Of a stretch of 64,000 nucleotides of DNA, positions 30,610 to 50,135 are shown in pieces. Where the stretch lies: IMG/VR virus record IMGVR_UViG_3300045988_131117. The stretch is one strand, 5' to 3'. Position 1 is the stretch's first letter; every line of letters starts with the position of its first letter. The position numbers and the translations under genes were made by a program. The notes beneath the pieces were generated by a model. The model was not told where the DNA came from. It ran no database searches and saw only the letters and a list, made by a program, of their open reading frames with translations. Source of the DNA: a virus.

Positions 30610-31113
30610 ATCCCATATTCTATTAAATATATTTAAAGCTATTCGTATGTTTTAATACATCCCCTCGGAGACCTTTCGGTCTCCTTGGTAGATGTAAATC
30701 CCGTTAGGGATAAGTCAGGATTTCTCCTGTAAGTACCCATCGCCAATGTTATTTAAGGTTTTGAATAAGCAACACTGTTCCTGAATACCAGAACTGTTTA
30801 ATCACTTACCTTAGAGCTACAGACTTGGGCAAACATCCGTAGGTAACTATCTATTCTTAAATAACGTAGCCTTTGTTTCAAGGCTTAGGCTAATAACCCG
30901 ATCTCTTAAAGAGATGTATTAAACTTTTATAATAGAATTATATTGGTTTAATACTATTTGGGGTTATAACACTGATCATAATGATTGGTCAGTTCTTCTG
31001 GTTCTAAATCTTGTCCAAAATCCATGTTAAAAATATCGTAATTAGTAAAGCACTTAAAAGCACTGTTTCCGCCGGCAGGAAATCTATGAATGCTGCTTTT
31101 ATTTCTTCAATTA

Positions 31114-31135
31114 GGCCCAAGTGTAACCTTGGGCC
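31114..31135 (-). terminator. hairpin immediately 3' of the flotillin-like gene
   Basis: GGCCCAAG / CTTGGGCC perfect 8-bp stem with a 6-nt loop and no clear U-tract. Confidence 0.35.
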
Positions 31136-31142
31136 ATTGTAT

Positions 31143-32843
31143 TTATTTTTTGTCATCTCCCTTTAACTTCTTTAAAGTATCTGCAATCGGAAGCTGATCA
31201 ATGACTCCCAATGCCGGAGCGACGGTCTTGACAACATTGTTAAGGAAATTACCGGTACTGTTCTGACCGCCGTCAAATACCGTGATATTTCCGAGGTTAA
31301 TGTGCTCAAATGCCTTAACCTGTTCTCCGGCAATTTCTTTCCACTGATTAACCATCTTGTACTGGATGGCGATCTGAGGATTGGATTCTGCTGCTTCCAC
31401 CATAGCCTTAAATCCGTCGGCTTCTGCCATCAACGATTTTTTCTTACCTTCGGCTTCTGCCTCCAGCTTCATCTGAATAGCTTTTGCCTCCGCCTCAGCT
31501 TTTGCCAAATGTGCTGCTGCCTCTGCCTCAGCCCGGCGTTTGATCTTCTCGGCCTCGGCATCAGCTTGCAAGATAGCCTCTTCCTTCTGGGTTTCAGCCG
31601 GCACAATCTTTTCAGCCTTAAGCGCAGCCTGAACTTTCTTAGCCTTAGCTTCTTCCACTTCTTTGTCGGCAAGCTCTTTTGCTGTTTTTACAGCCGCTTC
31701 CGATTTAACTTTTTCTTCTCCGGCCTTCTTCTCTGATTGAGCTTTGATGATCTGTAGTTCTGATACTGATACAGCAACCTCCTTCTGGGCATTGTTGTAT
31801 CCTATAGACGCATTTTTCTCAGCCTCAGCCTTCTTAATCTGAGCTTCAGAGTCTTGTATTGCTATAGCTGCTTCCTTGTCAGCTTCAGCCTTATTCTTTC
31901 CGACTTCTTCCATTCTTTCAGCCTCGGCTTTATTTACTTCAAGTTCTGCCTTAGATCTTACGATCGCCGATTCCTTGTCGGTTAAAGTTTTTGCGATAAC
32001 CGCAGCCCTGTCTCTATCTGCTTGAGCTACACCGATCTGTTTCTCTTTGTCGGTTAAAGCTAAAGCTATTTCTTTTTCTTTCTTCGTTTCAGCTACTATT
32101 GTCTCCTTTTCTTTTTCAGTACAAGCAATTTGAATCTCTTGTTCTTTTTTGGTATTAGCCACAGCCGTTTCTTTTTCCTTCTGCTGTACAGCAATTTTAA
32201 TAGCACCCAGCTTCTCCTGTTCTTCGATATTAGCCTGTGCCTCGTTCAGAGCCCTACTTTCAGCTTCCTTACCAAGGTTCATAATATAACCGGCTTCGTC
32301 TCTGATGTCACTGATGTTGATGTTCAGGAGGTAAAGACCTAACTTGTTAAGCTCATTATCAATGTTCTTTCTCGCCTTATCCAAAAACTCATCCCTGTCA
32401 GAATTAAGTTTTTCGATTGTCATTTCAGCAATAATCAAACGCATCTGACCGTAAACGATGTCCGTAATAAGATTTTCAGTAGATTCGGTATCCATCCCCA
32501 AAAGTCTTTCTGCCGCATTTTGCATGATTTCGGGATTTGTACTGATAGCTACTGTAATGGTCGTAGGTACATCTACTCTAATATTCTGAGATGACAAAGC
32601 ACCGGTAAGCTTGCAATCTATTTGCATAGGCTCCATTGACAAAACATCATAGCTTTGAATAATAGGCAAGACAAATGCCGCTCCACCATGATATAATTTC
32701 GCCGATTTCTTTTCCCCACCTGTCTTACCGTAAACGACCAAGACCTGATTAGGTTTACATCTACGATACCTTGATAAGACTCCGATGATTGTCAAAATAA
32801 TCACTACAGCTAAGATAGCTGACACGTACATGATTGTTGTCAT
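31143..32843 (-). CDS. SPFH/band-7 flotillin-like membrane protein (566 aa)
   Basis: N-terminal membrane anchor, SPFH-like core (NQVLVVYGKTGGE...FVLPIIQSYDVLSMEPMQIDCKL) and a long Glu/Ala-rich coiled coil (EAEAE repeats), as in bacterial FloT. Confidence 0.7.
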   Translation of the reverse strand: MTTIMYVSAILAVVIILTIIGVLSRYRRCKPNQVLVVYGKTGGEKKSAKLYHGGAAFVLPIIQSYDVLSMEPMQIDCKLTGALSSQNIRVDVPTTITVAISTNPEIMQNAAERLLGMDTESTENLITDIVYGQMRLIIAEMTIEKLNSDRDEFLDKARKNIDNELNKLGLYLLNINISDIRDEAGYIMNLGKEAESRALNEAQANIEEQEKLGAIKIAVQQKEKETAVANTKKEQEIQIACTEKEKETIVAETKKEKEIALALTDKEKQIGVAQADRDRAAVIAKTLTDKESAIVRSKAELEVNKAEAERMEEVGKNKAEADKEAAIAIQDSEAQIKKAEAEKNASIGYNNAQKEVAVSVSELQIIKAQSEKKAGEEKVKSEAAVKTAKELADKEVEEAKAKKVQAALKAEKIVPAETQKEEAILQADAEAEKIKRRAEAEAAAHLAKAEAEAKAIQMKLEAEAEGKKKSLMAEADGFKAMVEAAESNPQIAIQYKMVNQWKEIAGEQVKAFEHINLGNITVFDGGQNSTGNFLNNVVKTVAPALGVIDQLPIADTLKKLKGDDKK

Positions 32844-32874
32844 AACTTTTAAAATTTAATTGTTGATAAAAAAA

Positions 32875-33369
32875 TTAGATACTTAATTCTCCTTCTTCAT
32901 ATTTTATATTCACCTTGTCACCGTTTTTGTAGGTTTTTCCAGACAAGCATCTTACTCTCATTTGCTCCTGTCTTCCATTTTTCGAAATATTTACCATATA
33001 ATGATTCTTCCCTGATCTAAACACTATCTCCACTTCTCTTCCATTTAAATCTTCCGGACATTCGTACACCATTTCTTGCTTTAACTTAAGAAGTAACTTA
33101 TATACGTAAAACAAAACGATAAAGAAAAGCGACCCTATCACAACCCCTACTAAATGGGAACCCGAAAAGTAGGTAGTCCAGCTATATCCAAGAATAAAAT
33201 GTGTTATGCCCTTGAATGATATGATGTCCGACAAAGACATGCTTAAATCAGAAGCACTGTCAATGTCAATATCCGTATCCAGATCAGATCCTAATATCGA
33301 CAACAAAAACTGTATAACAAAAGCAAATGACGCTATTAAAGCCATGCATAAAATTATGTCACTTCCCAT
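32875..33369 (-). CDS. NfeD-like membrane protein (164 aa): N-terminal TM helices plus a C-terminal beta-rich OB-like domain
   Basis: Three hydrophobic segments, then GREVEIVFRSGKNHYMVNISKNG...GDKVNIKYEEGELSI. Sits immediately upstream of the flotillin-like gene, as in the yuaF-floT pairing. Confidence 0.5.
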   Translation of the reverse strand: MGSDIILCMALIASFAFVIQFLLSILGSDLDTDIDIDSASDLSMSLSDIISFKGITHFILGYSWTTYFSGSHLVGVVIGSLFFIVLFYVYKLLLKLKQEMVYECPEDLNGREVEIVFRSGKNHYMVNISKNGRQEQMRVRCLSGKTYKNGDKVNIKYEEGELSI

Positions 33370-33610
33370 ATCCTTCTGTTATTATTTTGTAAACAAGATC
33401 AGTCATATCTTTGATGGTCTCCATATCATAATCAATAATAACAATATTGAATTTTTGTTCCACCATCACATCAAGCTCAATCCGATCAACAGAATCTAAT
33501 CCAAGTTCTTTAAACGACACATCTTCTTCATGAACTATATCTATTTCCGAATTAAGAAACTGAGTAATAATTATATCCTCTATTATCTTTCTGATTCTTA
33601 CTTTTTCCAT
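33359..33610 (-). CDS. acpP: acyl carrier protein (83 aa)
   Basis: FKELGLDSVDRIELDVMVEQKF matches the ACP phosphopantetheine-attachment region (GxDSL/V ... EL..E..F), including the Ser in LGLDSVD. Confidence 0.7.
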   Translation of the reverse strand: MEKVRIRKIIEDIIITQFLNSEIDIVHEEDVSFKELGLDSVDRIELDVMVEQKFNIVIIDYDMETIKDMTDLVYKIITEGYGK

Positions 33611-34311
33611 TGCTTTCTAATTTTGTTAAATAAGTATGTTTTTATGTTTTTCAATCTCTCTTTGTCTGTTTCAGAACTTCCGGTAAATAAATAATCCGGA
33701 TTGCCTTTAGCCGGCGGCGTAGGCAATTTAGATACGGCAAACAACCAATCCATTTCCTTATTCTTCTTAGGCTCCAAATAAGGCTCGGTAGCGATCTTAA
33801 ATTTTTCAGCTATTAAGTCAAAGAGCTTTGAATTTTTAAGGTTCATATGAACTGAAAAAGCTTGAGAAGGCGGTTTCCATATGAAGTTACATAAGCTCAT
33901 TGTATAATCTCCTGACTCTGCTATATAAGATTCCGTTACCTGAAGTATGACCTCTTTCTTGAATGAGGTGTTACCCATAAACCAACACAATCTGGATTCT
34001 GCTTCTTTTCTGCTGACACCTATGTCTTTTGAATATGATTCGTACATTCCTATCATAATCTTCAACGTTTCCAGAACCTCGTCTGTCATTTCCGGTGTCT
34101 CTATATAATTCACAAAAGACGTTCCCTTGTTGGTCAATCTCATCACGCCTGATTTTAATTTCTCAACCAGGCCAAGCTCTATATACCTCCCAGCATCTTC
34201 TTCCGGCATGGCTTCGATCATAACCGAATCCTTCTGTCTTATGGCAAGAAGATTGGCAAGATCATTAGGAGTCATGTCTGATGCTGCAAGTTGTCTGAAA
34301 TTGATGTACAT
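33598..34311 (-). CDS. hypothetical protein (237 aa)
   Basis: ORF only. Confidence 0.45.
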   Translation of the reverse strand: MYINFRQLAASDMTPNDLANLLAIRQKDSVMIEAMPEEDAGRYIELGLVEKLKSGVMRLTNKGTSFVNYIETPEMTDEVLETLKIMIGMYESYSKDIGVSRKEAESRLCWFMGNTSFKKEVILQVTESYIAESGDYTMSLCNFIWKPPSQAFSVHMNLKNSKLFDLIAEKFKIATEPYLEPKKNKEMDWLFAVSKLPTPPAKGNPDYLFTGSSETDKERLKNIKTYLFNKIRKQWKK

Positions 34312-34526: not shown

Positions 34527-35129
34527 TTAACTGTTGTACCCTTCTTTAATAATCGAATTTCTACCGGTAGATACCGACTGTCGAAGATCGTCATGTACAG
34601 AATCTACCGTAGAATACTTGTTTCTGGTTGTAAAAATCACTTCCAGCATCTCCTTGTAATCACCTAAAGCTACTTCGTATCTCGGATCTACTTTGGCTTT
34701 TCTTTCGGCCTCGGCATTACTTTTAGCCAGTTCTCGGTCGAGGAGGTCTTCTTTGATTCGGTCAGCAATCATATCAAGTTCTTTTTTAATAACTTCTCCT
34801 GCTGCCCGAAGTTGACCTTCTACGTCACCAAGCTGGTCTTGGACGGTTCCTATTTCTTTCTTTAAACGATCGTATTCGTTAATCATACCCATATCACCTG
34901 CATATCCGGAAAAGTCCTTGATTATTCTGGTTCCTTCTTTAAGGAGCTCAATGACTCGTCTTTTACGTTCTCTGCTTATTAAAGACGGAAGACGATAATT
35001 CATATCCGCCACCGCCTTATCATGTATGGAGTTGATTAAAAACATCTCTCTTTCATCTCCTGCAAACTCAGTAAGAACCAAAAGGAACTTACTTATCAGG
35101 TATTCGTTTTCTTCTACTGTCAGTCTCAT
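34527..35129 (-). CDS. hypothetical coiled-coil protein (about 201 aa from ATG at 35129)
   Basis: The track ORF extends upstream across the helicase gene. The internal Met (MRLTVEENEY) avoids that overlap. Confidence 0.4.
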   Translation of the reverse strand: MRLTVEENEYLISKFLLVLTEFAGDEREMFLINSIHDKAVADMNYRLPSLISRERKRRVIELLKEGTRIIKDFSGYAGDMGMINEYDRLKKEIGTVQDQLGDVEGQLRAAGEVIKKELDMIADRIKEDLLDRELAKSNAEAERKAKVDPRYEVALGDYKEMLEVIFTTRNKYSTVDSVHDDLRQSVSTGRNSIIKEGYNS

Positions 35130-35143
35130 GGTTCTTATTTTTT

Positions 35144-36277
35144 TTAATACAATGACTGTTCTTCTTTTGTCTCTTGTTCTTGTTCCTGATTGTCCGTAAC
35201 GTCTTCCACAGTATAGAGCTTGGGCGGCGTCGGCGGCTGGTTGGGGTTCACGAACTTCGTCCCGCCCTCCCCGTACATCCATCCATGCCCCGGCAGAATC
35301 TCTGGGTGGATTGTATTAGTAAGCTCTTCCATACTAACTTGCCTTACCTTCAGTATATGATGAAACACCAGTCCGGCTGTCCTGAATGATGTTTTGTTTT
35401 CAGTTTTAAACCTATCAAGAGTCTGATACCAATCTTTCCCAAATATCATATACTTATCCAGCCCGTACCTACGAGGATTGTGCAAACCTATCATTAACGT
35501 ACATAACTGACCCAGCGTATCAGATTGGTAAAAATCAGAAAGACGCGGAGGCTGCTCTTGTGGGCTTTTTATCCTTCCTTCTATCTCTCTGTTGAATTGT
35601 GATATGATGAGGAAAAATATGTTTTTATATACTAATTTAGCTTCGTTTATAACCGCCACCAAATCATCTATAGCCGACTTAGGATCTAACCCCATTCTTT
35701 TTATCAAAGCAATATGATCGACTTTAAATATTATAAGACGTTTGTCTTTGTGTTTGGTAGCTATATGATACACAGCCGCCTCAAACTCTTTTACCGTACA
35801 CGGAGCATCGATGTATATTATATTATTCCTGATTTCACCTTGAAGGATTTCAAACATCCTCATCTCTTCCACTGTATTAGAATCTTGCCTTCTTAATATT
35901 TCAGGAGCCCGCTTTTTCATATCCTGGCTCATTCTACGAAGAAGAAGATCTTGAGGATTCATTTCGAACTCGCAATTAACAAGAAAATAATCTTCTGCTT
36001 GCGGGTTGATCATCGGATTCATCACATTTTCCAATATCTTTTGGGCCACATACGATTTACCTACAGATGGCCGGGCTCCTATGGCAATAGCATGCTGAGG
36101 GAAAATACCTCCAAGCAAAGCCTCATCAATATAATCGTATCCGGTTTTAGCGGGGATAAGCTCTCCCCGCCTGTATTTCAAGATATTCTCATACGCCTCT
36201 TCCATGACCTGTTTAGAGGTCTTGAATATCCTTCTTATATCTATTTTATTTTTCAGATCCTCTTGCATTTTTGTCAC
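35144..36277 (-). CDS. DnaB-like replicative DNA helicase (RecA-fold C-terminal domain only, 377 aa)
   Basis: Walker A GARPSVGKS and an ISQFNREIEGR segment resembling the DnaB SQLNR motif. Short N-terminal region. Confidence 0.65.
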   Translation of the reverse strand: MTKMQEDLKNKIDIRRIFKTSKQVMEEAYENILKYRRGELIPAKTGYDYIDEALLGGIFPQHAIAIGARPSVGKSYVAQKILENVMNPMINPQAEDYFLVNCEFEMNPQDLLLRRMSQDMKKRAPEILRRQDSNTVEEMRMFEILQGEIRNNIIYIDAPCTVKEFEAAVYHIATKHKDKRLIIFKVDHIALIKRMGLDPKSAIDDLVAVINEAKLVYKNIFFLIISQFNREIEGRIKSPQEQPPRLSDFYQSDTLGQLCTLMIGLHNPRRYGLDKYMIFGKDWYQTLDRFKTENKTSFRTAGLVFHHILKVRQVSMEELTNTIHPEILPGHGWMYGEGGTKFVNPNQPPTPPKLYTVEDVTDNQEQEQETKEEQSLY

Positions 36278-46666: not shown

Positions 46667-46854
46667 TTTATACTGGCTATGTTATAAAACATACGGATGT
46701 TATTTAATTTCATATTTTTCTTCTCTAACTTTGTTTTACTCAATCGAATCATATAGTCCCTTGTTTCGGACAAGACGGTTGGGTAAAAGAGGTCTTTGAT
46801 ATAAGGTTTTACCCTAAAAAAAAATAGGTGATTATATACAACTTTACACCATCT

Positions 46855-46908
46855 ATATAAAACAGAAGCCGGATAATGATTAACGTATATCCGGCTTCTG
46901 TTTTATAT
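46855..46908. repeat. 21-bp perfect inverted repeat forming a long hairpin
   Basis: ATATAAAACAGAAGCCGGATA (46855–46875) pairs with TATCCGGCTTCTGTTTTATAT (46888–46908) around a 12-nt loop. Lies just downstream of the transposase operon. Confidence 0.6.
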
Positions 46909-46910
46909 GG

Positions 46911-47099
46911 TTAAAATTCTTTTTCGTTACCACCTTTTTTAGAGGTGGTTTTATCAAAAAGAGGGTCGTTAGGATCTGTTTTGGGATTATAGCTAAATAC
47001 ACCTTTAGCTATTCTCTTCATATCCTTCTCTAATTTTCCAATTTTACTACTTCTGATCGTAGTAGTGGTTGATATTGTGAATTTCTTATTTTTTTTCAT
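46911..47099 (-). CDS. small hypothetical protein (62 aa)
   Basis: ORF overlapping the transposase stop by 4 nt. Confidence 0.35.
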   Translation of the reverse strand: MKKNKKFTISTTTTIRSSKIGKLEKDMKRIAKGVFSYNPKTDPNDPLFDKTTSKKGGNEKEF

Positions 47100-48019
47100 G
47101 CCGTAATTTTCTTTAGTTGTGAATACCTTAATCGTCGTTTGGTATTCTGCAAAAATACATCGAATCTTTCAGATTCCGATAGATGTTTCGTGTTATATCT
47201 GAAAGATTCGCAATCTACATATCTTTGAAGATGTTTTCTCGACACCCAGAAATGGGTTCCAGAAATCATTTTCTTCAAATGGCTCCAATATCCTTCGATT
47301 GTGTTTGTTGATCTTCTGCCTATTACATACGCTCCCTTTTTGTGATATACTTTTTGATGATCAAACTTTTCTTTGTTGATCCCGTTATACGCATACCATT
47401 CGTCAGAATATATGGTAGAATTAGGATGAACGGTATTGTATATCAAAGGAAGTAAGGTTTTACCTTTTGTGTCTGTAACGACATAAGCGACAACAAATCC
47501 TTCTCGTTGGAGTGTCCCAAACACAGGGGTTTTATCTTTTAAAGATCTCCCCTGTGCATCTTTAACTTTATCCTTACTATGTCTATTCTTGTTTTTGCCA
47601 CCAATATAAGTTTCATCCACTTCAATCTCGCCTTTCAAACACGGCTCTTTTATTTCAATACTAAAACAATTGTGAATACGTTGAAGCATAAACCAAGCCG
47701 TTTTCTGTGTTACTCCCACGATTTTAGACAACTGTAAAGATGATACTCCTCTTTTCATTTCAACAACAAAATAACAAGCCAACATCCATTTTCGTAATGA
47801 GACTTTCGAATTTTCAAAAATCGTTCCTGTACGAACATTGAAATATTTACCCGTGTTTTTACACTTGTATCTATTTCCTTTGCATTTATACACCTTAGAT
47901 TCCGGATCAAAAGGAGAAACAACGTGATCTCCCCACCTTTCTTTTTCAAGAAAGGTTATACACGCTTGCTCATCAGGGAACAATTTTGAAAATTCGGGAA
48001 GTGATTTAAAATCGAACAT
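47096..48019 (-). mobile_element. IS1595-family (ISXO2-like) transposase gene
   Basis: N-terminal zinc ribbon (VVSPF...CKGNRYKCKNTGKYF) and a DDE-type core with the IYSDEWYAYNG motif. Terminal inverted repeats not identified. Confidence 0.65.
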
Positions 48020-48187
48020 ACTTCTTATCTTTATATTGGATTATAAAAATACAAAAATATATTCATATAACCAACTAAAAATCAATTAAATTCATCGAAT
48101 ATCTGATTTTGAATTATTTTTTTTTGTTGTTAAATTTCTAATTCTTTTCTATTTTTGAGGATTGTCTAACTTAATTGTAATAATATC

Positions 48188-48364
48188 ATGGAAAAGAAAA
48201 TAGAACACAAAAAAGACAAAGTGGAACTTTACAAAGACAAAAACGATAAATGGCGATGGAAAAGAATAGCTCCAAACGGAGAAGTAGTTGGTGCTTCTAC
48301 CCAAGGATATGCCAATAAAAGTTACTGTAAAGAGAATGCAAGGAGAAATGGGTGTGATATATAG
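48188..48364 (+). CDS. DUF1508 (YegP-like) domain protein (58 aa), not in the supplied ORF track
   Basis: VELYKDKNDKWRWKRIAPNGEVVGASTQGYANKSYCKENA matches the YegP pattern F..yKd..g.WRWrl.a.NGe..a.S.gY.sK.....a. Confidence 0.6.
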   Translation: MEKKIEHKKDKVELYKDKNDKWRWKRIAPNGEVVGASTQGYANKSYCKENARRNGCDI

Positions 48365-48370
48365 ACAATG

Positions 48371-48535
48371 CTAATCATTTGGAATAATCCCCACTACTTC
48401 TTCTGTTGTAGCTCTTTGTTTAACAAAATCTTCTGCTTCATTCCAAGAAGTAGCCCATATTTCACCAGCGTATTTTCGCCCGTTGATTTCAAATTCTGTC
48501 AAAAATTTCTTTTGTTTTTCTTCTTTTGTTTTCAT
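48371..48535 (-). CDS. small hypothetical protein (54 aa), not in the supplied ORF track
   Basis: ATG ORF MKTKEEKQKKFLTEFEINGRKYAGEIWATSWNEAEDFVKQRATTEEVVGIIPND. Confidence 0.3.
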   Translation of the reverse strand: MKTKEEKQKKFLTEFEINGRKYAGEIWATSWNEAEDFVKQRATTEEVVGIIPND

Positions 48536-48579
48536 AATTACAATTTTAAAAAGTTAATAATTAATTGATTTATAAAAAG

Positions 48580-48611
48580 AAAGCGGTGATAAACTAAGTT
48601 GCCACCGCTTT
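48580..48611 (-). terminator. rho-independent terminator (minus-strand reading)
   Basis: AAGCGGTG / CACCGCTT stem followed on the minus strand by TTTCTTTTTAT; lies 3' of the lipoprotein gene. Confidence 0.55.
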
Positions 48612-48632
48612 TACTGCTTACTATTTTGTATA

Positions 48633-49028
48633 TTATTGTATCCTGTACATTGAAAAGTCTTCAAAATCTCCAGATACACAATCAAGTTTCAGCCAACCTT
48701 CTGACACCTTTACATCATAAACAATAGGTGGCTCAGGGTCACTATCAAATACAATGACTAATTTCATTGTATTTTTATCAAAAGAGTATGTGAAAGGATC
48801 TGGGCTTTTCTTTTTGCCTTCATTGTAATATACAGTCATTACGCCTGTATCGTCATTATAAAATGTGAGTTCGAAAAATTCATCTGCGGGGAATTGCTCT
48901 CCCCATGAACCTATTAATATGCTGTTATTGTCATTATTCACATTATCATCGTTACACGAAAATGTGAATAAAAGTAGCAAGGTTAATAATATATGTAGTA
49001 CTTGTTTCATGTTATTGTTAAAATTCAT
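48633..49028 (-). CDS. predicted surface lipoprotein (131 aa)
   Basis: Signal peptide LLTLLLLFTFSC with Cys followed by NDDN, the Bacteroidota lipoprotein export signal pattern. Confidence 0.6.
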   Translation of the reverse strand: MNFNNNMKQVLHILLTLLLLFTFSCNDDNVNNDNNSILIGSWGEQFPADEFFELTFYNDDTGVMTVYYNEGKKKSPDPFTYSFDKNTMKLVIVFDSDPEPPIVYDVKVSEGWLKLDCVSGDFEDFSMYRIQ

Positions 49029-49722
49029 ATCCGACCTTTATACTAAATCCGTTCATGTCACCACTTCCATCTCCCCATTCTTCATCAAATGATACCTTTT
49101 GTATAGAATATCCTATACCTAAATTAACAGCTTGTTTTTTAGTGGTCATAAACCGTACGCCAATAAAAGGGTTACAATACAATCCACCTTTTTTTGCATG
49201 TCTTGGTGCTTCTTTTGTATTGAACTTATACCCTATTCTTAATGCAATAAAAGGAGATATTGGACCATTCAAGGCATATCCTCTCACATCCGCAAATACA
49301 GGTATGCTTACTGTTGAATAATCGGTCATATAGTGTATGCCGGTTCCACCTCCTACAAATAAATATTGATTGATTTGGCTTCCATATGTAAAATATAATT
49401 CTGGGCCTTTGTATCCACCTGCCCAGTATCCGAGATCAATCATAAATCTACTCCCTGTCAAATCGTACTTTTCATTGGATATTTTAAATGGAATTTTAGA
49501 TTCTTTCTCTTCTTTGGTTATTTTACTGATATCTTCCATAGGGTACACAAACGTACTACCATCAGAAGTGCGAATAGTAATTTGCTTGTCTGGTATCTGC
49601 TCGATAATAACCCCTTTTATAACACTTCCATTTTTTAAATGAATAGCTTCAACCATTTTGTTCTGTGAGTAAGCGCATACACTACCCAATAGAACAACTA
49701 ACAATAATAGATACTTTTTCAT
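49018..49722 (-). CDS. outer-membrane beta-barrel protein (234 aa)
   Basis: Signal peptide MKKYLLLLVVLLGSVCAYSQ, alternating beta-strand composition and a C-terminal ...KVGYEF aromatic terminus. Confidence 0.6.
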   Translation of the reverse strand: MKKYLLLLVVLLGSVCAYSQNKMVEAIHLKNGSVIKGVIIEQIPDKQITIRTSDGSTFVYPMEDISKITKEEKESKIPFKISNEKYDLTGSRFMIDLGYWAGGYKGPELYFTYGSQINQYLFVGGGTGIHYMTDYSTVSIPVFADVRGYALNGPISPFIALRIGYKFNTKEAPRHAKKGGLYCNPFIGVRFMTTKKQAVNLGIGYSIQKVSFDEEWGDGSGDMNGFSIKVGYEF

Positions 49723-50135
49723 ATGAAATAATTTTGCTCTTTCTGCCTCCTTCGAAAGATTAACAAAAAAAAGAAGCGTGGAGACTATTGGATACTACCA
49801 CATTGAGGTCTTGGACTACCCTTCGCACAATAGTAAACAATAGCCCCACGCCTTATGTCAGTATACTATTATCCCTCTTGTATAATCAGAATGCGTATAC
49901 AACAACATAGGCGTAGGAGCTGTATGTCTATTATCTTGTGCGAATGAAAGTGTCCAAGTTTCAATGCAAGATAATATCTTAACGCTTCTACGTCTTTATT
50001 CTAATACGTGAGGGCAAAGATAGTTATTCTATCTAATATTTTAAAACGGCTTAAAAGGATTTAATTTGATGTAAAATGAATATTGGGAATTTTAACAGTT
50101 CGTATTTTTGCATAAACAACAAAATATCTAAGATC

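Follow-up and report, generated by a model that had tools for sequence, protein, structure and literature searches.

What a phage does with genes for an acyl carrier protein (ACP), an NfeD-like membrane protein and a flotillin-type SPFH protein, and where it obtained them, is the question raised by this locus. The window, i.e. the whole stretch of 64,000 nucleotides that was analysed, is ~98% identical to phage csAssE-Sib (OR575929), a deposited complete genome of 151 kb. The phage is crAss-like and common in the human gut; no publication on csAssE-Sib turned up in a literature search, nor any connecting crAss-like phages with flotillin. All three genes had been annotated before in GenBank record OR575929, as "acyl carrier protein", "transmembrane protein" and "flotillin family protein". 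The arrangement is exactly as an earlier note, made from the sequence alone, had described it: three consecutive minus-strand genes at 31143–33610. The NfeD-like/flotillin pair lies among replication genes that are closely packed on the minus strand; adjacent genes of this strand generally overlap by 8–14 nt, regardless of function.

The flotillin resembles chromosomal Bacteroidales genes (62–70% identity), as might a piece of bacterial DNA wrongly joined to phage sequence during assembly, but such an artefact can be given virtually no weight. The same arrangement, with phage replication genes on both flanks, occurs in the deposited complete genome, in at least 166 independent IMG/VR contigs and in diverged relatives; neither GC content nor strand skew breaks within the region, and contaminating host DNA would show a far higher identity. 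The phage context assumed in the earlier note is genuine, and the misassembly that it had named as a potential objection is excluded by the independent assemblies, the relatives and the unbroken GC and skew. The window lineage, L243 and the diverged L087 lineage all keep the order ACP, NfeD-like, flotillin, and the NfeD-like and flotillin genes are intact in 77–79 of the 82 window-lineage loci.

The flotillin gene (31143–32843, minus strand) encodes a protein of 566 aa with an N-terminal membrane anchor, an SPFH/Band_7 domain, an A/E/K-rich coiled coil and a Flot C-terminal domain. Band_7 (PF01145) is matched at E 7.6e-26 (91.7 bits vs a gathering score of 23.6), and the Flot domain (PF15975), positioned after the coiled coil, at E 2e-9 (38 bits vs 27). 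Residues 215–450 are 56% A/E/K, and a single hydrophobic segment at the N-terminus (residues 1–28) qualifies as a membrane anchor. The flotillin-like SPFH protein with a coiled coil, as first proposed, is borne out by these features. The best matches among PDB sequences are the chains of the human flotillin-1/2 cage (E 7e-23), while the FloT equivalog cut-off (NCBIfam NF058507) is missed by a wide interval (144.5 vs 700 bits). Judged by its sequence, the protein is a member of the SPFH superfamily, of the flotillin type, yet not a FloT equivalog. The 'EA repeat' was also considered as a tandem repeat at the DNA level and rejected.

The middle gene (32875–33369, minus strand) encodes 164 aa, arranged as a TM helix, an acidic D-x-D-x-D loop, an 'SFKGxxHF' helix, a second TM helix and a C-terminal OB-type beta domain. 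Hydrophobic segments are found at residues 1–30 and 67–96, and the predicted model places helices at 2–25, 46–69 and 72–101, ahead of a five-stranded OB-type beta-barrel. The best structural matches of this barrel are solved NfeD proteins, YuaF and YbbJ among them, with modest scores. Profile searches did not place the protein in the NfeD/YqiJ families: there was no match in Pfam, NCBIfam, PHROGs or PADLOC, and when 69 family members were rescanned with Pfam NfeD (PF01957), one reached E<0.01 and three E<5, amid transmembrane noise. Compared with PDB sequences, a full-length profile gave only transmembrane noise, and a profile of the OB domain alone gave artefacts from designed beta-propeller repeats, with YuaF at just E 0.28. 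The designation NfeD-like with a C-terminal OB domain, made in the earlier note, stands as regards the TM/OB layout, the structural matches and the location in an SPFH operon, but every NfeD HMM misses the protein. At these modest scores, the middle gene appears to have the NfeD architecture of TM helices plus an OB domain. It falls in a family of 426 clusters (at 50% identity), marked out by the acidic D-x-D loop together with the SFKGxxHF motif and overlooked by present Pfam and NCBIfam models. Defining this family would improve how the genomes of Bacteroidales and of their phages are annotated.

These domain assignments bear on one candidate role, protease control, in which the flotillin cage would enclose or restrain a host membrane protease, as HflK/C does with FtsH, and so protect labile phage proteins or tune the infection programme. 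Cages of SPFH proteins enclosing FtsH are established, as cited in PMC12478178, and a 2026 Crassvirales preprint speculates along similar lines for an HflK/C-like domain (10.64898/2026.08.21.746148). However, the phage protein is of the flotillin type (by its Flot domain and its best PDB matches) and not of the HflK/C type, no protease gene is linked to the pair in phage or host loci, and the NfeD-like protein, being of the short form, lacks a ClpP-like protease domain. Such a role is improbable.

The earlier note missed the origin of the pair, a Bacteroidales chromosomal operon. A family profile (8-sequence subset) was scanned against 185,579 species genomes and gave 80 loci, all assigned to Bacteroidales except one titled Coprobacillus and two with unspecific names. 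The NfeD-like gene is directly upstream of the flotillin gene in 79 of these 80 chromosomal loci, usually at a distance of roughly 20–130 nt, although in a single locus the gap reaches ~320 nt. The host pair stands as a unit of its own among unrelated and variable neighbours. In B. xylanisolvens XB1A (L115, 5001–7171) and Parabacteroides goldsteinii (L146), for example, the same two genes follow one another as in the phage, separated by a short intergenic stretch, and the NfeD-like proteins have the same size and motif layout as that of the phage. Phage and Bacteroidales flotillins are alike over their full length (62–67% identity by tblastn, 65–70% by global alignment). Their SPFH and C-terminal domains are near-invariant, and the differences are confined to the coiled coil, where the phage protein has small insertions. 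In contrast, the NfeD-like proteins are just 38–44% identical. The phage copy also differs in its setting, a replication module with an ACP gene before it and a small hydrophobic ORF after it, both missing from the host loci. Neighbour-joining trees of the two proteins agree, the window and L087 forming a sister clade to the Bacteroidales chromosomal clade. This shows that an ancestor of the phage clade captured the NfeD-like and flotillin genes as a unit from a Bacteroidales host, in the form of a near-intact operon copy. Since the NfeD-like protein has diverged far more from its host counterpart than the flotillin has (38–44% vs 65–70%), the adaptor may be the part that was adapted to phage use.

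The pairing itself extends well beyond these hosts. A short NfeD-type OB protein is encoded directly upstream of an SPFH gene in B. subtilis yuaF-floT (NfeD2-FloT) and in E. coli yqiJ-yqiK and ybbJ-qmcA, although the phage NfeD-like protein is without significant sequence similarity to these partners and falls in its separate family. Among viruses, the pair is present in every one of 71 other large contigs that encode a family member, which fall into ~20 clusters with unrelated neighbours; the operon is also found in L085, L087, L089 and L243–L245. Thus, the view of NfeD plus SPFH as a conserved operon pair holds for 79/80 bacterial and 71/71 viral loci, and the suggested check for conservation in related phages finds the trio in L243 and L087. 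The word 'unusual', also used in the earlier note, fits only in part: an ACP gene beside the pair is restricted to the csAssE-Sib-like clade, but the pair recurs in the ~20 clusters, and lists of phage SPFH genes go back to 2006 (PMC1524935). Such genes are of unknown function and regarded as morons or host-derived (PMC1524935, PMC5834331). Phage-encoded SPFH membrane proteins are likewise present in the T4-like phages 44RR, Aeh1 and RB43, in Stenotrophomonas phage DLP5 and, as a 'flotillin family protein', in Vibrio phage KIT04. None of these has been reported with an NfeD partner (in KIT04, only an 82-aa ORF without a Pfam match precedes the flotillin), whereas here the complete host operon is present, and it recurs in numerous large phages of the gut.

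Recurrence in many unrelated large phages would be expected of a general tool for takeover or exclusion. The phage copies might then co-assemble with host cages or displace them, leading to superinfection exclusion or to the disabling of a membrane-associated host defence. The high host identity in the oligomerisation regions of the flotillin (65–70% would allow mixed oligomers), next to a strongly diverged adaptor, is in keeping with this. Against it, PADLOC defence models match none of the five proteins encoded here (the small ORF, flotillin, NfeD-like, ACP and orf237), the literature search gave no support for SPFH-based exclusion, and the flotillin is under strongly purifying selection (median dN/dS 0.03), with no sign of an arms race. 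A competitive or defensive use is possible but unlikely. Purifying selection acts on the ACP and NfeD-like genes as well; the medians for the flotillin and NfeD-like (0.07) genes are as low as those of DnaB and the nuclease.

The ACP gene (33359–33610, minus strand) encodes a small (83 aa), strongly acidic protein (pI 4.35), as is usual for type II carrier proteins. It scores 26.5 bits with Pfam PF00550, above the gathering threshold of 20.8, and also matches phrog_5934. The protein matches 57 PDB ACPs, its serine (in 'GLDSV') aligns to the DSL of solved ACPs, and the motif GLDS[LIV] is kept in 37 of 38 alleles, in agreement with the intact phosphopantetheine site claimed before. It is a genuine carrier protein, probably phosphopantetheinylated, for which it would depend on the host AcpS. 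It does not appear to be an ortholog of AcpP or of a named specialised ACP: the best score with NCBIfam ACP equivalogs is 29 bits, vs cut-offs of 65–146 for stand-alone ACP models. Other phage ACPs of PHROG 5934, an auxiliary/host-takeover class, are similar small acidic PP-binding proteins with a DS[LIV] serine. The window ACP differs from them in being lineage-specific (by tblastn against deposited phages) and in having no biosynthetic partner nearby. A homolog search returned only same-lineage sequences among the matches listed, and when the two phage ACPs and orf237 were compared with deposited phages by tblastn, either csAssE-Sib alone or nothing was matched. Some GenBank MAG records call the ACP 'DUF1493'.

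The earlier note had treated ACP, NfeD-like and flotillin as one functional unit, and in such a triad the ACP would bring an acyl group to the microdomain of the NfeD-like protein and flotillin, or would itself serve there as a lipid-bound adaptor, with the result that the phage modifies or marks membrane lipids or proteins in the cage. The gene order conserved across three lineages, the 11-nt overlap between the ACP stop and the NfeD-like start, and an ACP serine motif that is conserved with dN/dS below 1 (median 0.28) speak for it. However, the overlap is of the general minus-strand kind, and the gene is absent from 80/80 host loci and from 71/71 other phage loci with a family member. It is also the fastest-evolving gene of the block, with 34% identity between the window and its positional ortholog in L087, compared with 61–82% for its neighbours. 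Neither the annotation of the reference genome OR575929 nor a scan of 10 more ORFs of the window yields a phosphopantetheinyl transferase (PPTase), an acyltransferase or a ligase, and orf237 likewise matches no PPTase or acyl-transfer enzyme. The remark that no acyl-transfer partner is obvious was thus correct, but the single functional unit was not supported, and the triad is a decidedly unlikely reading. Because the ACP is missing from the host and other phage loci and is so divergent between phage lineages, it is read as an independent neighbour. It is probably best regarded as a separate accessory gene located upstream of the pair in this clade, and not as a third subunit.

Two further ORFs border the trio. 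Upstream, orf237 (33598–34311, minus strand) shares 13 nt with the start of the ACP gene and shows strong conservation (76% identity to the L087 ortholog, dN/dS 0.04), but it has no counterpart in Pfam, PHROG, NCBIfam, PADLOC or the PDB; its single-sequence AF2 model (pLDDT 34.5) is too poor to use. Considered as a candidate partner for the ACP, it gave no sequence match in the databases searched. Downstream, a small ORF (31004–31156, minus strand; 50 aa) overlaps the flotillin stop by 14 nt and has a C-terminal hydrophobic segment (residues 21–50), making it a possible accessory membrane peptide. Its length varies (34, 50 or 57 aa) and its dN/dS is 0.42. ORFs of similar size follow the flotillin gene in L087 (52 aa, no detectable similarity) and L243 (50 aa), and there is none in the host loci examined. 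Whether it is part of the same unit is uncertain.

We lean, with some reserve, towards a captured SPFH-NfeD operon that builds flotillin cages in the membrane of the infected cell, with the ACP as an independent neighbour. The pair is presumably transcribed together with the minus-strand replication block; a scan for sigma-70 promoters and terminators gave nothing above shuffled controls, the sigma-70 model being unsuited to Bacteroidales. As cellular flotillins do, the phage protein would be anchored in the cytoplasmic membrane by its N-terminal hydrophobic segment and oligomerise through its SPFH, coiled-coil and Flot regions, so that a closed cage encircles a patch of membrane. Judging from homology to QmcA-YbbJ, FloA-NfeD and the cage of flotillin-1/2, the TM helices of the NfeD-like protein would lie in this patch, while its OB domain binds the flotillin and aids assembly. 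The model of a cage with a partner derives from QmcA-YbbJ (PMC13086221), and the mechanism is outlined in PMC12478178, citing Tan et al. 2024, Fu & MacKinnon 2024 and Ukleja et al. 2024. Most likely, the phage pair would supplement or re-specify the flotillin microdomains of the host, and the membrane would stay functional through a long productive infection; fluidity, protein stabilisation and the scaffolding of membrane complexes are candidate routes. The roles put forward in the earlier note, namely anchoring of the replication compartment, exclusion and lipid modification, are speculative. Mechanistically there is nothing new here, and the eye-catching ACP link is probably incidental.

A more far-reaching version, in which large gut phages employ the captured cage and a re-specified NfeD-like adaptor (with a private ACP in the csAssE-Sib-like clade) to build a membrane microdomain under phage control, is a long shot. 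If true, this microdomain would anchor or protect part of the machinery of infection or tie up a membrane factor of the host, and would be a phage-made membrane compartment analogous to the use of lipid rafts by eukaryotic viruses.

SPFH/flotillin cages occur across all domains of life. Here, an abundant lineage of human gut phages, along with ~20 other lineages of large phages, maintains a flotillin/NfeD operon of the host type. That the operon is intact and under purifying selection of helicase strength suggests an importance of flotillin microdomains in the infection of Bacteroidales by phages, and phage infection could serve as a natural perturbation from which to learn what flotillin cages do.

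The three minus-strand genes described in an earlier note are present exactly where it placed them, and encode an acyl carrier protein (ACP; 33359-33610, 83 aa), a middle, NfeD-like protein (32875-33369, 164 aa) and an SPFH/flotillin protein (31143-32843, 566 aa). The start of the ACP gene overlaps its upstream neighbour, orf237, by 13 nt and its stop overlaps the NfeD-like start by 11 nt, while the spacing between the NfeD-like and flotillin genes is 31 nt. These overlaps reveal little about functional linkage, as overlaps are frequent on this strand regardless of gene function. The flotillin stop is overlapped by 14 nt by a 50-aa minus-strand ORF with a C-terminal hydrophobic segment (orf50; 31004-31156). 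Related phages carry small ORFs of 50–52 aa in this position (that of L087, a diverged lineage, has no detectable similarity); the length of orf50 varies (34, 50 or 57 aa), its dN/dS of 0.42 indicates weak constraint, and host NfeD-like/flotillin operons lack it.

The window is ∼98% identical to csAssE-Sib (OR575929.1), a complete 151-kb human-gut phage genome that encodes terminase, portal, capsid and crAss-type ring and muzzle proteins, together with a diversity-generating retroelement and Bacteroidetes-associated carbohydrate-binding proteins. There the three genes are annotated as "acyl carrier protein", "transmembrane protein" and "flotillin family protein". At least 166 IMG/VR contigs match the flotillin, many with a length of 140–155 kb; identity is 96–100% in the 80 that were listed. 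The cluster is flanked by genes for a DnaB-like helicase and a PD-(D/E)XK nuclease, and neither GC content nor strand skew breaks through the region. Misassembly with bacterial DNA, a concern raised in the earlier note, is excluded by the recurrence of the locus in the reference genome and independent contigs, the phage flanks, and the even GC and skew.

Several further elements occur in the window. A full-length HEARO RNA (Rfam RF02033, the IscB-associated omega-RNA family; 30729-30967, minus strand; 112.9 bits, gathering score 83) sits in the ∼394-bp gap directly downstream of the flotillin/orf50 unit, with no IscB- or HNH-sized ORF adjoining it. At this position csAssE-Sib has only ∼24 nt, and the insertion is polymorphic (14–16 of 82 lineage loci), apparently an omega-RNA element that is orphaned or mobile. 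An IS1595-family DDE transposase of 307 aa (47096-48019, minus strand; PF12762, E 2.9e-42) is encoded within a segment, 46824-49800, that has no megablast match to csAssE-Sib and is a strain-specific insertion or replacement. Finally, a 251-aa ORF (34527-35282, minus strand), of the same length in GenBank, shares 139 nt with the DnaB-like gene. Since its orthologs in L087 and in L243, a relative within the csAssE-Sib-like clade, are 200 aa long and start with MRLTVEENEYL, the internal Met is probably the true start and the annotated N-terminus too long.

The flotillin matches both Pfam Band_7 (E 7.6e-26) and the Flot domain (E 2e-9), as its proposed SPFH identity would predict; it has a single N-terminal hydrophobic anchor and a central A/E/K-rich region, and the solved structures closest to it in sequence are those of the human flotillin-1/2 cage chains. 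The proposed "EA repeat" of the coiled coil is a matter of composition; no DNA tandem repeat underlies it. Within the lineage, flotillins range from ∼467 to 595 aa at 69–99% identity, all variation falling in the coiled coil (approximately residues 240–400); that of P0289 has a clean in-frame deletion of 85 aa. As the cage wall consists of the coiled coil, cage height may differ between variants.

The middle protein has no match in Pfam, NCBIfam, PHROGs, PADLOC or PDB sequences. Its AF2 model (mean pLDDT 71; C-terminal domain 81–86) combines three helices at the N-terminus with an acidic loop that is disordered and a small beta domain. Independently, Foldseek places YbbJ (from the QmcA-YbbJ cage of E. 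coli, where it is the NfeD subunit) at the top of its matches, at an E-value of only 0.042. An exhaustive profile search gave 426 clusters at 50% identity, mostly of 160–180 aa and matching end to end, with a common layout: TM helix, D-x-D-x-D acidic loop, "SFKGxxHF", TM helix and the C-terminal motif "LVGR..IY...NG...GD.V.I..Y..G.YYI". The SFKGxxHF motif is almost invariant, and the D-x-D-x-D-x-D loop preceding it could be a cation-binding site. Pfam NfeD is reached by one of 69 members at E<0.01 and three at E<5, and a profile restricted to the OB domain matches YuaF across that entire domain at E 0.28. The protein is thus NfeD-like by fold, TM/OB architecture and gene neighbourhood, as had been proposed, but membership by sequence is not demonstrable. 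No Pfam or NCBIfam model covers the family, a candidate new one inside the NfeD clan.

The NfeD-like and flotillin genes form a real, conserved SPFH-NfeD cassette of host origin. A family-subset profile, run against a 185,579-species genome collection, found 80 loci. Apart from two with unspecific names and one whose record is titled Coprobacillus, all are assigned to Bacteroidales (Bacteroides, Phocaeicola, Parabacteroides, Prevotella, Leyella, Xylanibacter). In 79 of the 80 a flotillin with 62–67% full-length identity to that of the phage follows the NfeD-like gene at ∼20–130 nt (one up to ∼320 nt); in the 80th the sequence ends ∼250 bp beyond the NfeD-like gene. Neighbour-joining trees of both proteins concordantly place the window and L087 as sister to the Bacteroidales chromosomal clade, apart from other phage copies. 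Between phage and host, NfeD-like proteins (38–44% identity) are much more diverged than flotillins (65–70%), whose SPFH and C-terminal domains are near-invariant, with differences in the coiled coil. The pair also occurs at 71 further IMG/VR loci in ∼20 clusters (contigs of 9–270 kb, most 90–195 kb), all with a flotillin of 558–694 aa directly downstream; this other phage clade has virtually no representatives among deposited phage genomes. The pair of L172 (IMGVR_UViG_3300045988_141550, 25 kb) nests within the Bacteroides chromosomal clade, so this contig is probably a piece of bacterial DNA or of a prophage flank and not an independent phage copy. Some small "phage" records from Enterococcus and Listeria, unannotated, also match the flotillin and may likewise be host DNA.

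The ACP assignment, including the phosphopantetheine serine, holds: the protein scores 26.5 bits against PP-binding (gathering score 20.8), matches PHROG 5934 ("acyl carrier protein"), and aligns the Ser of its "GLDSV" with the DSL site of 57 solved ACPs. Its pI is 4.35 and the serine motif is intact in 37 of 38 alleles. It falls far short of all NCBIfam ACP equivalog cut-offs, and is thus a carrier protein without assigned subtype. Consistent with the remark that an acyl-transfer partner was not obvious, neither the reference annotation nor 10 additional window ORFs include a PPTase, acyltransferase or ligase, and orf237 matches nothing in Pfam, PHROGs, NCBIfam, PADLOC or the PDB; host AcpS would be the obvious activating enzyme. 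Genes are intact in 77–79 of the 82 lineage loci, with median dN/dS of 0.03 (flotillin), 0.04 (orf237), 0.05 (PD-(D/E)XK nuclease), 0.07 (NfeD-like), 0.09 (DnaB) and 0.28 (ACP); identity to L087 is 82% for flotillin, 76% for orf237, 61% for NfeD-like and 34% for ACP. The ACP is a neighbour of the pair in the csAssE-Sib-like clade alone (the lineages of the window and of L087, together with L243). It is absent from all 71 further viral loci, where the upstream neighbours differ wholly from cluster to cluster, and the 80 host loci, with unrelated and variable neighbours, have no homolog of ACP, orf237 or other phage neighbours. A functional triad of all three proteins, which adjacency and the retained serine might suggest, is quite unlikely; the association is probably incidental.

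Phage SPFH genes have been on record since 2006 (PMC1524935; also PMC5834331), with others in Vibrio phage KIT04 and a 2026 Crassvirales preprint, and phage ACPs already constitute a PHROG, the one matched here. Our literature search yielded no paper describing an NfeD partner in a phage or a flotillin in crAss-like phages; what is new, as annotation, is the assignment of the middle protein as NfeD-like and the derivation of the pair from a host. As summarised in PMC13086221 and PMC12478178, SPFH proteins build closed cages around membrane patches (QmcA-YbbJ, of 26 heterodimers; flotillin-1/2), accompanied by NfeD partners that promote assembly or function, and FloA-NfeD acts in unfolded-protein stabilisation. 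Co-assembly with host flotillin might serve exclusion or anti-defence, an unlikely role for which PADLOC returned no defence match; FtsH-type protease control is quite unlikely. Most likely, the phage pair would act as cage and partner in the infected cell, like cellular SPFH/NfeD pairs, and would supplement or re-specify the microdomains of the host.
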